DNA from: Shigella phage ESh36
Direction: 5' to 3' (one strand)
Sequence record: ON528746
Length of the DNA: 64,000 nt
Position numbers and translations under genes: made by a program. This document shows positions 42,587 through 43,418 of the stretch, piece after piece. The notes under the pieces were generated by a model that was not told the DNA's origin, did not search any database, and saw nothing but the letters and a program-made list of their open reading frames with translations. Positions within the stretch are counted from its first letter, which is position 1, and each line of letters begins with the position of its first letter.

Positions 42587-42662
42587 TGGTCGAGGCAGTA
42601 GGGATCGAACCTACGACCCAGGACTTAGAAGGTCCTTGCTCTTCCTTCTGAGCTATGCCTCG
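42587..42662 (-). tRNA. tRNA-Arg (anticodon UCU)
   Basis: Manual cloverleaf: acceptor CGAGGCA, anticodon loop CUUCUAA, T-loop GGTTCGATCC, CCA encoded. Confidence 0.85.
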
Positions 42663-42666
42663 TATT

Positions 42667-42741
42667 TGGCGGACGTGATAGGATTCGAACCTATAACCAA
42701 TCGCTTAACAGGCGATCGCTCTGCCATTGAGCTACACATCC
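42667..42741 (-). tRNA. tRNA-Asn (anticodon GUU)
   Basis: Manual cloverleaf: D-stem GCTC/GAGC, anticodon stem ATCGC/GCGAT, loop CUGUUAA, T-arm ATAGG-TTCGAAT-CCTAT, CCA encoded. Confidence 0.8.
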
Positions 42742-42745
42742 AAAT

Positions 42746-42832
42746 TGGTGGGGAGTGATGGAGTCGAACCACCCGAGTCGCAATGACAATGAATTTACAG
42801 TCCACACCGCTACCTCTACGGGATAACTCCCC
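42746..42832 (-). tRNA. tRNA-Tyr (anticodon GUA), type II with long variable arm
   Basis: 87 nt; anticodon loop CUGUAAA; variable arm GTC-ATTGC-GAC; T-loop GGTTCGACTCC; CCA encoded. Confidence 0.75.
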
Positions 42833-42845
42833 TTAATTCTTAATT

Positions 42846-42920
42846 TGGTGGCCCTGGGTGGAATTGAACCACCATCTGGCGATTATGAGTCGCTTGCTTG
42901 AACCTTCCAGCTACAGGGCC
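42846..42920 (-). tRNA. tRNA-Ile (anticodon CAU, Ile2/lysidine type; Met not excluded)
   Basis: Anticodon arm GCGAC-UCAUAAU-CGC as in E. coli tRNA-Ile2; acceptor GGCCCTG/CAGGGCC; unusual short D-stem. Confidence 0.7.
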
Positions 42921-42921
42921 T

Positions 42922-42997
42922 TGGTGCTGATTGACGGAATCGAACCGCCGACCTTCTCATTACAAGTGAGTTGCTCTACCTACTGAGCTAAATCAGC
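42922..42997 (-). tRNA. tRNA-Thr (anticodon UGU)
   Basis: Canonical cloverleaf; anticodon loop CUUGUAA; CCA encoded. Confidence 0.85.
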
Positions 42998-43002
42998 AAA
43001 AC

Positions 43003-43092
43003 TGGCGGAGGCGATAGGATTTGAACCTATGAGTCGCCGGAGCGACTGCCGGTTTTCAAGACCGGTGCATTAAACCACTCTGCCACGCCTCC
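43003..43092 (-). tRNA. tRNA-Ser (anticodon UGA), type II
   Basis: 90 nt; matches remembered T4 tRNA-Ser; anticodon loop CUUGAAA; long variable arm. Confidence 0.88.
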
Positions 43093-43094
43093 AG

Positions 43095-43168
43095 TCTCCA
43101 TACAAGGATTTGAACCTTGGACCTCCTGATCCCAAATCAGGCGCTCTACCAAACTGAGCTACACGGAG
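43095..43168 (-). tRNA. tRNA-Pro (anticodon UGG); 3' CCA not encoded
   Basis: Anticodon loop UUUGGGA; followed by CU and then the tRNA-Ser 5' end (Pro-Ser dimeric precursor arrangement). Confidence 0.85.
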
Positions 43169-43178
43169 TAAATTAAAT

Positions 43179-43252
43179 TGGAGCGGATAATGAGAATCGA
43201 ACTCACATCATCAGATTGGAAGTCTGAGGTAATACCATTATACGATATCCGC
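43179..43252 (-). tRNA. tRNA-Gly (anticodon UCC)
   Basis: Anticodon loop CUUCCAA; T-loop GTGAG-TTCGATT-CTCAT; CCA encoded. Confidence 0.85.
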
Positions 43253-43257
43253 AAATT

Positions 43258-43344
43258 TGGTGCGAGAAGTGGGACTCGAACCCACAAGGAAATCATTCCG
43301 CAGCATTTTAAGTGCTGTGCCTTTACCAATTTGACCATTCTCGC
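43258..43344 (-). tRNA. tRNA-Leu (anticodon UAA), type II
   Basis: 87 nt; matches remembered T4 tRNA-Leu (GCGAGAAUGGUCAAAUUGGUAAAGGCACAGCACUUAAAAUGCUGCGG...). Confidence 0.9.
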
Positions 43345-43345
43345 G

Positions 43346-43418
43346 CTGGGAATAAAGGACTCGAACCTTTGCATCTAGCAGTCAAAGTGCTATGCCTTAC
43401 CAACTTGGCTAATTCCCA
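43346..43418 (-). tRNA. tRNA-Gln (anticodon UUG); 3' CCA not encoded
   Basis: Starts UGGGAAU; anticodon loop CUUUGAC; discriminator G then one C before the tRNA-Leu 5' end. Confidence 0.88.

Follow-up and report, generated by a model that had tools for sequence, protein, structure and literature searches.

The ten-tRNA cluster of Shigella phage ESh36 and its likeness to the T2/RB27 version of the T-even tRNA operon

In the T-even phages, tRNA genes lie together in one region of the genome whose content differs between relatives. T4 encodes eight tRNAs, with segB between the genes for tRNA-Ile and tRNA-Arg, and its tRNA region gives a single ~1.75-kb transcript, with a middle promoter cited immediately upstream of the cluster (PMC2330249). 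In T2L neither segB nor the tRNA genes flanking it are present, and the phage has been described as carrying "four extra tRNA genes" (Brok-Volchanskaya et al. 2008, PMC2330249). The preferred SegB recognition site is a 27-bp sequence that begins GGTTCRANTCC, lies wholly inside the tRNA-Asn gene of T2L, and differs from the site in tRNA-Ser at G6, A16, G18, A26 and A27 (PMC2330249).

We analysed 64,000 nucleotides of ESh36 DNA (ON528746; hereafter the window). Its tRNA locus is very probably a T2/RB27-type tRNA operon of a T-even phage (Tequatrovirus), as judged from sequence comparison, and no observation spoke against this assignment. The 24 kb around the cluster are ~96% identical to Tequatrovirus genomes, among them many T-even phages, and the flanks are those expected of a T4-like genome (tRNA.2-4/ipI upstream and e.8 downstream), with matches to T4 trna.2 and e.8 at 44045-44310 and 41096-41359, respectively (96-98% identity). 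Two flanking ORFs have no T4 counterpart at these positions; in Pfam and PHROGs they matched only families of unknown function.

Gene content and operon signals

In all 64 kb of the window ARAGORN detected just 10 tRNA genes, all on the minus strand between 42587 and 43418 (Table 1), with intergenic gaps of 0, 5, 10, 1, 5, 1, 13, 4 and 4 nt in transcription order. Nine of them exceed the Rfam tRNA gathering score (59-74 bits, E 1e-11 to 1e-16), tRNA-Asn scoring best and tRNA-Tyr being the exception. The original prediction had listed ten tRNAs with these identities, order and spacers, and ARAGORN bears it out, the outer coordinates being exact. It had also held that Gln and Pro lack an encoded CCA and abut Leu and Ser, whereas the other genes encode it, and the 3' ends agree: CCA is encoded in 8 of the 10 genes, with Gln (...CCCAG-C/GCGAG) and Pro (...GGAGA-CU/GGAGG) running into the genes that follow. 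The 3' end of Ser reads CCTCCGCCAG in the window and CCTCCG-TAA in the aligned T4 gene, a difference likewise reported between T2L and T4 (PMC2330249).

Table 1. Features of the tRNA locus, in transcription order (window positions)
Feature	Coordinates	Strand	Evidence and remarks
Putative MotA-dependent middle promoter	43488-43514	-	MotA box TTTGCTTTA (43514-43506), 12-nt spacer, -10 TATTAT (43493-43488); predicted function
tRNA-Gln(UUG)	43345-43418	-	ARAGORN; Rfam 66 bits; 73/73 identical to T4; CCA not encoded (only C74); abuts tRNA-Leu
tRNA-Leu(UAA), class II	43258-43344	-	ARAGORN, Rfam; 87/87 identical to T4; CCA encoded
tRNA-Gly(UCC)	43179-43252	-	ARAGORN, Rfam; 74/74 identical to T4; CCA encoded
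tRNA-Pro(UGG)	43094-43168	-	ARAGORN, Rfam; 74/74 identical to T4; CCA not encoded; Ser starts 2 nt past the discriminator
tRNA-Ser(UGA), class II	43003-43092	-	ARAGORN, Rfam; CCA encoded here, UAA instead in T4
tRNA-Thr(UGU)	42922-42997	-	ARAGORN, Rfam; 73/76 identical to T4; CCA encoded; 1 nt to next gene
tRNA CAU, most likely tRNA-Ile2, T2/RB27 allele	42846-42920	-	ARAGORN (label "Met"); CCA encoded
tRNA-Tyr(GUA), class II, phage-type variable arm UGUCAUUGCGACUCG	42746-42832	-	ARAGORN; CCA encoded
tRNA-Asn(GUU), discriminator G73	42667-42741	-	ARAGORN; Rfam 74.1 bits; CCA encoded
Predicted intact 27-bp preferred SegB recognition sequence GGTTCGAATCCTATCACGTCCGCCAAA	42665-42691	-	T arm to CCAAA of tRNA-Asn; exact match
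tRNA-Arg(UCU), T2/RB27 allele	42587-42662	-	ARAGORN, Rfam; CCA encoded
rnaD (species 2 stable RNA)	~42466-42585	-	Directly 3' of tRNA-Arg; 87% identical to T4 rnaD over 118 nt; fold z = -2.5
rnaC (species 1 stable RNA)	42321-42459	-	97.8% identical to T4 rnaC over 139 nt
Intrinsic terminator, end of tRNA/small-RNA operon	42247-42270	-	10-bp stem (7 G-C) then T run; kept in T4, T6 and RB27

The promoter region is conserved with T4 from GCTTTA onward, and its motif is consistent with the single transcript known for T4. Most likely the locus would be one transcription unit, running from the MotA-type promoter (43514-43488) through the ten tRNAs, rnaD and rnaC to the terminator (42270-42247). As extrapolated from work on T4, T2 and T6, host RNase P, 3' trimming nucleases and the CCA-adding enzyme would process the transcript into mature tRNAs, with CCA addition required for Gln and Pro alone.

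The rnaD gene has the same position in the RB27 annotation, and rnaC folds with -50.2 kcal/mol (z = -4.5), its 3' hairpin resembling a T arm. Some records have ORFs called across rnaC and rnaD, and these are probably false. The T4 cluster had been described in the original prediction as eight tRNAs with segB and two small RNAs between Ile and Arg; the tRNA count and the place of segB are right, but the two small RNAs (rnaD and rnaC) sit downstream of Arg. Both are also present downstream of the window's Arg and had been missed. It was right that segB is absent: blastn with T4 segB matched nothing in the 64-kb window, and tblastn with T4 SegB reached no better E-value than 0.24.

The Ile-to-Arg block and the SegB site

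The window order, Gln-Leu-Gly-Pro-Ser-Thr-Ile(CAU)-Tyr-Asn-Arg-rnaD-rnaC without segB, is the order annotated in RB27 (NC_025448, 67367-68460), where the same ten tRNAs are likewise followed by rnaD and rnaC and have the same flanking ORFs. Per-gene identity to RB27 ranges from 73/74 to 100%, with 98.2% over 1.37 kb, and RB27 differs only by point changes and an Ile-Tyr spacer that is 4 nt shorter; its Tyr has C40 (G30-C40), whereas that of the window has U40 (G30-U40). T2/T2L (AP018813) shares with the window the absence of segB, an encoded CCA in Ser, the preferred SegB site in tRNA-Asn, and 100% identical Ile(CAU), Tyr, Asn and Arg genes. It differs in having nine tRNAs, with a 402-nt ORF in place of Thr and a second ORF between Arg and rnaD; Thr is present in the window and neither ORF is.

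T4 (NC_000866, 70908-72530) has its cluster at the same genomic position and with the same operon layout (promoter region, rnaD, rnaC, terminator). It shares Gln, Leu, Gly, Pro and Ser with the window at 100% identity and Thr at 96%, but segB replaces Tyr and Asn, and Ser and Ile have no encoded CCA. T6 (AP018814) has a tRNA-Tyr 86/87 identical to the window's, and differs by segB in place of Asn and by T4-type Ile and Arg; ARAGORN calls six tRNAs in it, Pro and Ser having been lost by a deletion that leaves a Pro/Thr chimera.

Aligned with T4 and T2, the whole Ile-to-Arg block of the window is a different allele from that of T4, and not as two genes added to a canonical T4 set, which was the original view. 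The breakpoints are visible in a five-phage alignment: the block begins at nucleotide ~12 of the CAU tRNA, runs as far as the 3' end of Arg and contains Ile2(CAU), Tyr(GUA), Asn(GUU) and Arg(UCU), without segB. Next to the five identical genes upstream, Ile and Arg are only 47/74 and 48/77 identical to those of T4 (~62%), and queries with T4 tRNA-Ile and tRNA-Arg gave no blastn match in the window because the alleles have truly diverged. The window's Arg is 76/76 identical to T2 and RB27 and 48/77 to the Arg of T4 and T6; its CAU gene is 75/75 identical to T2 and RB27.

Comparison with T4 alone gives the block the look of an insertion, as if, in a novel arrangement, segB had been lost and two host tRNA genes then recently captured between Ile and Arg of T4. 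We consider this account refuted, with next to no chance of being correct. Identity to the host genes is just 64% for Tyr (E. coli tyrU) and 62% for Asn (asnT), and on these values a host origin of the two genes was rejected. The adjoining Ile and Arg are different alleles as well, the same block is found in T2 and hundreds of genomes, and the published inference is the opposite, namely that T4 gained segB recently (PMC2330249).

The window's version of the block is also the common one. The tRNA region matches 1053 phage records, 425 of these over at least 80% of the query, and by rough counts the Tyr-Asn pair is present in 432 phage records and segB in 126. The T2/RB27-type version is commoner in databases than the eight-tRNA version of T4 itself. 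T4 is the atypical member of its genus at the tRNA locus, so the cluster should not be framed as the T4 set with extras. Nor is the ten-tRNA arrangement new or unusual: it is already published and annotated in hundreds of genomes, RB27 included, and has a literature since 2008, when the four T2L genes were described (PMC2330249).

The SegB site in tRNA-Asn (Table 1) was located with a sequence that we reconstructed from the published description (PMC2330249), and the five positions named there all fit. The 27-bp sequence matches the window exactly at one place only (chance expectation 0). No enrichment in the window is seen for RAWTSGAAC, the published SegB SITE-seq motif (6 matches, 6.9 expected); three of the six matches fall in the T arms of Asn, Thr and Gly. 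The window block would be an "empty" target allele, of the kind that SegB-carrying phages such as T4 would convert on co-infection, and its intact SegB site predicts that the block is lost when the phage co-infects with segB-carrying phages. As the window phage lacks segB, the SegB-driven amplification route known for T6 would be closed to it when acting alone.

Identity of the Tyr, Asn and CAU genes

tRNA-Tyr is the weakest computational call of the ten. Rfam RF00005 (gathering score 29 bits) gave no hit, the best hit in the clan being tRNA-Sec with 29.9 bits where its own threshold is 47, and the unconstrained minimum-energy fold (RNAfold) is not a cloverleaf (z = -1.0). The D stem departs from the usual form (either a C-C mismatch or CCG/CGG pairing in a shifted register) and the anticodon stem has two G-U pairs; a homologue in phage Mt1B1_P17 is flagged by RefSeq as "tRNA-Pseudo-GTA", and the T6 tRNA-Tyr has been reported as "relatively unstable". 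These features would suit a reading in which Tyr and/or Asn are decayed, non-functional relics, but that reading is largely refuted and very improbable. Both genes are 100% conserved with T2 (87/87 for Tyr), and Asn is the top-scoring gene of the cluster. With a GUA anticodon, an A73 discriminator and a long variable arm, Tyr shows the identity features for TyrRS, and with G1-C72 it looks like a bacterial-type class II tRNA-Tyr. Northern blots and rescue data have been published for the T6 gene (PMC13096335).

Covariation supports the cloverleaf of tRNA-Tyr. In 11 phage homologues from at least seven genera, the acceptor, anticodon and T stems together have 187 pairs, of which 186 are canonical, and two-sided compensatory changes occur. 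Stems were parsed by script from anchors and not from the MAFFT alignment, which misplaces 1-nt indels in the acceptor stem of JEP1 and fGh-Ecl04 and in the anticodon stem of LG1. ARAGORN misses four of the seven divergent homologues fetched, plus one near-duplicate (Mt1B1_P17, identical to JEP1), so detectors are marginal for the phage tRNA-Tyr family. The tRNAscan-SE annotation of phage ESh28 includes a Tyr gene 1 nt different from that of the window. Given the covariation and the published T6 data, the failure with Rfam and RNAfold was rejected as a sign of a pseudogene.

tRNA-Asn is well above the covariance-model threshold (E 1.5e-15 in a 4-kb scan) with a GUU anticodon and G73, and its minimum-energy fold (z = -2.5) comes near a cloverleaf, the D stem having 3 bp and the anticodon helix being extended. 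The gene agrees with T2 and RB27 at 75/75 positions and is identical to an ESh28 gene called by tRNAscan-SE.

The CAU gene is most likely tRNA-Ile2, with a predicted lysidine that would let it read AUA. It had been read as Ile from the start, and this is supported by 76% identity to E. coli ileX against 60% to metT. The acceptor stem (GGCCCUG/CAGGGCC) has G1-C72, C4-G69 and C5-G68, the latter two pairs being the TilS determinants that Ikeuchi and colleagues are said to have described in 2005. Neither mark of an initiator tRNA, a C1-A72 mismatch or an anticodon stem with three G-C pairs, is present. The anticodon arm is ileX-like (AGCGACUCAUAAUCGCC in the CAU tRNA, GGCGACUCAUAAUCGCU in ileX), with 14 of 17 positions matching, including the entire loop and pairs 29-41 to 31-39. 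Annotations of this gene should read tRNA-Ile2 and not tRNA-Met.

Codon supply and possible anti-defence roles

The tRNAs may add decoding capacity for the A/T-ending codons that this 35% GC phage overuses relative to its host. We compared the window ORFs with a 50-kb E. coli K-12 sample, divided into ordinary genes and ribosomal plus EF genes; the sample is small, at ~14,800 codons, and takes in gsp genes that were acquired horizontally. Frequencies per 1000 codons in the window ORFs, with the two E. coli classes in that order in brackets, are 47.3 (25.1 and 18.7) for Tyr, 58.8 (42.8 and 34.3) for Asn, 12.6 (6.0 and 0.2) for AUA and 10.6 (2.8 and 1.0) for AGA. A check of late genes had been proposed in the original prediction, and in the plus-strand baseplate (late) ORFs Tyr and Asn reach 52.0 and 67.5 per 1000, above the E. 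coli sample.

Tyr and Asn could, like the other eight, serve only the translation of the A/T-rich, mainly late genes and have no anti-defence role. Their codons are 1.4-2.5 times as frequent as in the E. coli sample and most frequent in the baseplate ORFs, with UAU at 2.5-6.9 and AAU at 2.0-9.3 times the host frequency. Even so, we regard pure codon supply as a possible but somewhat doubtful explanation. The phage shows a similar enrichment of Lys and Phe codons without carrying a Lys or Phe tRNA, so codon demand alone fails to predict the tRNA set carried, and the tRNA region has been described as dispensable for T4 development (PMC2330249). Tyr is also nearer to the gene of an unrelated phage than to that of the host, being 83% identical to the tRNA-Tyr of T5 (NC_005859), in which the 33 nt of variable arm and T arm are the same. 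This likeness to unrelated phages suggests, on sequence grounds, a trait exchanged between phages.

The T6 tRNA-Tyr rescues T6 from Septu (PtuAB), which cleaves host tRNA-Tyr (Chihara et al. 2026, PMC13096335), and this relief of restriction is dosage-dependent, which also speaks against codon supply alone. Septu restricts T4, which lacks a Tyr gene, and in T2 resistance goes together with a Tyr gene identical to that of the window. The T5 tRNA-Tyr rescues phage from retron-Eco7. By analogy with these phages, the window's Tyr may replenish a tRNA pool destroyed by host defence nucleases (Septu and retron-Eco7 PtuAB), and the presence of tRNA-Tyr predicts relative resistance to such PtuAB-type defences.

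A further idea, which we think unlikely, is that Asn(GUU) and Thr(UGU) are nuclease-escape variants against anticodon-stem tRNases such as PARIS AriB. The AriB target motif U36-A-A-U39-C-C41 is present in host asnT; the window's Asn has UAAGCG (G39) in its place, and its Thr has UAAUGA where the host has UAAUCA. Cleavage of tRNA-Lys by AriB is abolished by a U39 change, and the T5 tRNA-Asn contributes to rescue from PARIS. We found no paper testing AriB escape by a T-even Asn. If it were true, the Tyr-Asn block removed by SegB homing would be a two-gene anti-defence cassette and not codon-usage ballast. The T5 tRNA-Asn (UAAGUU) has G39 in common with that of the window, and the two are only 52/79 identical overall; T5 belongs to an unrelated phage family, and its tRNA genes are spread out, with ORFs and HNH endonuclease genes among them, whereas those of the window form one packed block.

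The tRNA operon and its surroundings

Using ARAGORN, we found ten tRNA genes, and no more, in the 64-kb window, all of them in one minus-strand cluster. In transcription order these are Gln(UUG), Leu(UAA), Gly(UCC), Pro(UGG), Ser(UGA), Thr(UGU), a CAU tRNA, Tyr(GUA), Asn(GUU) and Arg(UCU), with intergenic gaps of 0, 5, 10, 1, 5, 1, 13, 4 and 4 nt. The coordinates and identities of the original prediction, which had been made by hand folding, coincide with this output, including both the Asn and the Tyr gene, and the cluster is confirmed with one caveat, the scoring of tRNA-Tyr. 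Eight of the ten genes encode CCA; Gln and Pro lack it and adjoin Leu and Ser, respectively. With the Rfam tRNA model nine genes score 59-74 bits, with Asn at the top (74.1).

Features of the tRNA region and its neighbours (window coordinates)
Feature	Coordinates	Strand	Remark
tRNA cluster	42587-43418	minus	ten genes
Putative MotA box TTTGCTTTA, 12 nt, then -10 TATTAT	43514-43488	minus	motif upstream of Gln
rnaD	~42466-42585	minus	87% identical to T4; 3' of Arg
rnaC	42321-42459	minus	98% identical to T4; 3' of Arg
Terminator	42270-42247	minus	strong; after rnaC
Reconstructed SegB site	42665-42691		27 bp
RAWTSGAAC match	42682-42690	plus	T arm of Asn
RAWTSGAAC match	42937-42945	plus	T arm of Thr
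RAWTSGAAC match	43194-43202	plus	T arm of Gly
ORF, 61 aa	42186-42371	minus	mechanical call
ORF, 42 aa	42377-42505	minus	mechanical call
Flanking ORF, 187 aa	41589-42152	minus	phrog_2280
Flanking ORF, 171 aa	43505-44020	minus	phrog_2290
Gene 57B homologue	45282-45737	minus	Pfam Acb1, E 2.6e-60

The CAU tRNA, labelled Met by ARAGORN, shares 76% identity with E. coli ileX, the lysidine-modified tRNA-Ile2, and 60% with metT. It carries G1-C72 and is therefore no initiator. Ikeuchi and colleagues reportedly described in 2005 that TilS separates Ile2 from Met by the acceptor pairs C4-G69 and C5-G68, both of which are present here. In the anticodon arm 14 of 17 positions agree with ileX, among them the entire loop and pairs 29-41 to 31-39. 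Together these features argue for the predicted Ile(CAU).

The small RNAs rnaD and rnaC are the T4 stable RNAs "species 2" and "species 1". The rnaC sequence has a strong fold (z = -4.5) with a T-arm-like hairpin (GGGUUCAAGUCCC) at its end, and rnaD diverges from its T4 counterpart at the 5' end, where it borders the replaced block discussed below. Two mechanical ORFs overlap these RNAs, and equivalent ORFs are annotated as hypothetical proteins in the GenBank record of phage ESh28 (L002 1487-1800); they are probably false CDS calls on non-coding RNA genes. The MotA box/-10 region is conserved in T4, and this putative promoter is consistent with the published picture of the T4 tRNA region, which has a middle promoter and is transcribed as one long RNA (PMC2330249).

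An ORF lies at either side of the operon, neither at these positions in T4. Both belong to PHROGs of unknown function, and a Pfam search of the two gave no significant domain; the 171-aa ORF is also present in RB27 and T2. The gene 57B homologue, about 1.9 kb upstream of the operon, matches the anti-CBASS nuclease Acb1 and is therefore a known anti-defence gene.

Block replacement relative to T4 and the SegB site

The T4 order (NC_000866) is Gln, Leu, Gly, Pro, Ser, Thr, Ile, segB, Arg, rnaD, rnaC. The small RNAs thus follow Arg and do not lie between Ile and Arg, as had been proposed. The first five genes, Gln to Ser, match T4 with 100% identity and Thr with 96%, whereas T4 Ile and Arg have no blastn match anywhere in the window (47/74 and 48/77 identical positions for the CAU gene and Arg). 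Ser and Ile encode CCA here, where T4 has UAA and UAU. In a five-phage alignment the left breakpoint falls about 12 nt inside the CAU tRNA and the right one at the Arg/rnaD junction, and Ile, Tyr, Asn and Arg are all 100% identical to T2. The difference from T4 is thus a block replacement and no insertion: Tyr and Asn, originally taken as additions to the T4 set, are members of the replaced block.

The T2-type block, the Ser CCA and the absence of segB are already published (Brok-Volchanskaya et al. 2008, PMC2330249). In that study segB and the tRNA genes next to it are missing from T2L, RB1 and RB3; T2L has "four extra tRNA genes", and cleavage sites were mapped in the Met, Tyr, Asn and Arg genes of this phage; the Ser gene has CCAG in T2L but not in T4. 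The preferred site of the homing endonuclease SegB is a 27-bp stretch within tRNA-Asn (PMC2330249). We reconstructed it as GGTTCGAATCCTATCACGTCCGCCAAA, which agrees with all five distinguishing positions named there, and it occurs once in the window. As predicted, segB was not found in the window, and the locus is therefore the segB-less target allele. The published SITE-seq motif of SegB, RAWTSGAAC, is not enriched (6 matches, 6.9 expected); three of the six lie in T arms.

The 1.4-kb region matches 1053 phage records, nearly all T4-like enterobacterial phages, and the surrounding 24 kb share about 96% identity with many Tequatrovirus genomes. The annotation of RB27 (NC_025448) gives the identical ten-tRNA set and order, with rnaD and rnaC after it; ARAGORN counts are 8 tRNAs in T4, 9 in T2, 6 in T6 and 10 in RB27. 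The Tyr-Asn pair is found at no less than 80% coverage in 432 phage records and segB in 126. The segB-less Tyr-Asn allele is the common one, so that the T4 set is not the canonical state assumed at the outset, and the cluster is an already known feature, correctly annotated by hand.

Two relatives differ further. The annotated tRNA-Thr of T6 (AP018814, L004 2643-2717) is a Pro/Thr chimera. The D-arm sequence GTAGCTCAG is repeated, and a deletion between its copies took out most of Pro, the whole of Ser and, from Thr, the 5' strand of the acceptor stem; in the chimera this stem is now unpaired, and ARAGORN does not call the gene. In T2 (AP018813, L005 5003-5353 and 5711-6112) a 351-nt ORF lies between Arg and rnaD and a 402-nt ORF replaces tRNA-Thr. 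The two correspond to the "two ORFs of unknown function" reported for T2L; their product names in the record are implausible, and the window has neither ORF.

The tRNA-Tyr gene

The tRNA-Tyr gene scores below the Rfam tRNA gathering score of 29 bits (its top clan match is tRNA-Sec, 29.9 bits), and its unconstrained fold gives no cloverleaf. It nevertheless has acceptor, anticodon and T stems of 7, 5 and 5 bp, with two G-U pairs in the anticodon stem. The anticodon loop is CUGUAAA and the T loop UUCGACU, the variable arm is long, and the gene has the discriminator A73 and encodes CCA. We compared 11 sequences, with homologues from RB27, T6, T5, two Vequintaviruses, a Felixounavirus, a Jiaodavirus, a Karamvirus, Salmonella phage WP85 (a record without lineage) and an Enterococcus Kochikohdavirus. 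Over the acceptor, anticodon and T stems, 186 of 187 pairs are canonical. Both partners have changed in a compensatory way at most positions of the acceptor stem, in the second and third anticodon pairs and in the first three T pairs. The D arm departs from the usual form: it has either a conserved CCG/CGG stem with the register shifted or, in the standard register, a C-C mismatch. This is the probable cause of the gene's low score with the covariance model.

Gene finders perform marginally on the phage tRNA-Tyr family as a whole: several homologues escape ARAGORN, and RefSeq marks one as "tRNA-Pseudo-GTA". The ESh28 gene, 1 nt different from that of the window, is called by tRNAscan-SE, as is an identical Asn. 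The T6 gene also differs by 1 nt, and its tRNA was seen on a northern blot and rescues infection (PMC13096335).

The window gene is 83% identical to that of T5 and only 64% to the host gene, with the 33-nt variable arm plus T arm identical to T5. The variable arm (UGUCAUUGCGACUCG) is nearly invariant across unrelated coliphage lineages (T-even, T5-like, Vequintavirus, Felixounavirus and Phapecoctavirus), and in Phapecoctavirus Mt1B1_P17 tRNA-Tyr is again followed by a tRNA-Asn, which suggests that a Tyr(-Asn) module is exchanged between phages.

Codon demand and defence

We counted codons in 94 non-overlapping window ORFs (18,064 codons) and in the annotated CDS of a 50-kb E. coli K-12 sample. 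Tyr, Asn, AUA and AGA codons are commoner in the window ORFs, and plus-strand baseplate ORFs are highest. The counts support the classical tRNA-supply reading, but the E. coli sample is small, and Lys and Phe codons, for which the phage has no tRNA, are similarly enriched.

Codon use per 1000 codons
Codons	Window ORFs	Baseplate ORFs	E. coli ordinary genes	E. coli ribosomal/EF
Tyr	47.3	52.0	25.1	18.7
Asn	58.8	67.5	42.8	34.3
AUA	12.6	19.7	6.0	0.2
AGA	10.6	18.2	2.8	1.0

Separate experiments point to a defence role of tRNA-Tyr. Septu EcB88 (PtuAB) cuts tRNA-Tyr within the variable arm, and overexpression or amplification of T6 tRNA-Tyr restores infection; T4, without a Tyr gene, is strongly restricted, whereas T2 is resistant (PMC13096335). 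The T2 Tyr gene is identical to that of the window. Under retron-Eco7, T5 tRNA-Tyr rescues phages in a dosage-dependent manner. By analogy, we infer that tRNA-Tyr may serve both codon supply and anti-defence in phage ESh36.

The PARIS effector AriB cuts E. coli tRNA-Lys(UUU), Thr(UGU) and, less strongly, Asn(GUU) 3' of C40 in the context U36-A-A-U39-C; substitution of U39 abolishes cleavage, and T5 Lys, Thr and Asn jointly rescue from PARIS (PMC12409363). Positions 36-41 of Asn are UAAGCG in the window, UAAGUU in T5 and UAAUCC in host asnT. These bases fit a role of the window tRNA-Asn as an escape variant against AriB, which we nevertheless consider unlikely: the evidence is weak, as a tRNA that shares just 62% identity with its host counterpart is bound to differ at some position of this stem. 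The matching stretch of Thr reads UAAUGA in the window and UAAUCA in the host.
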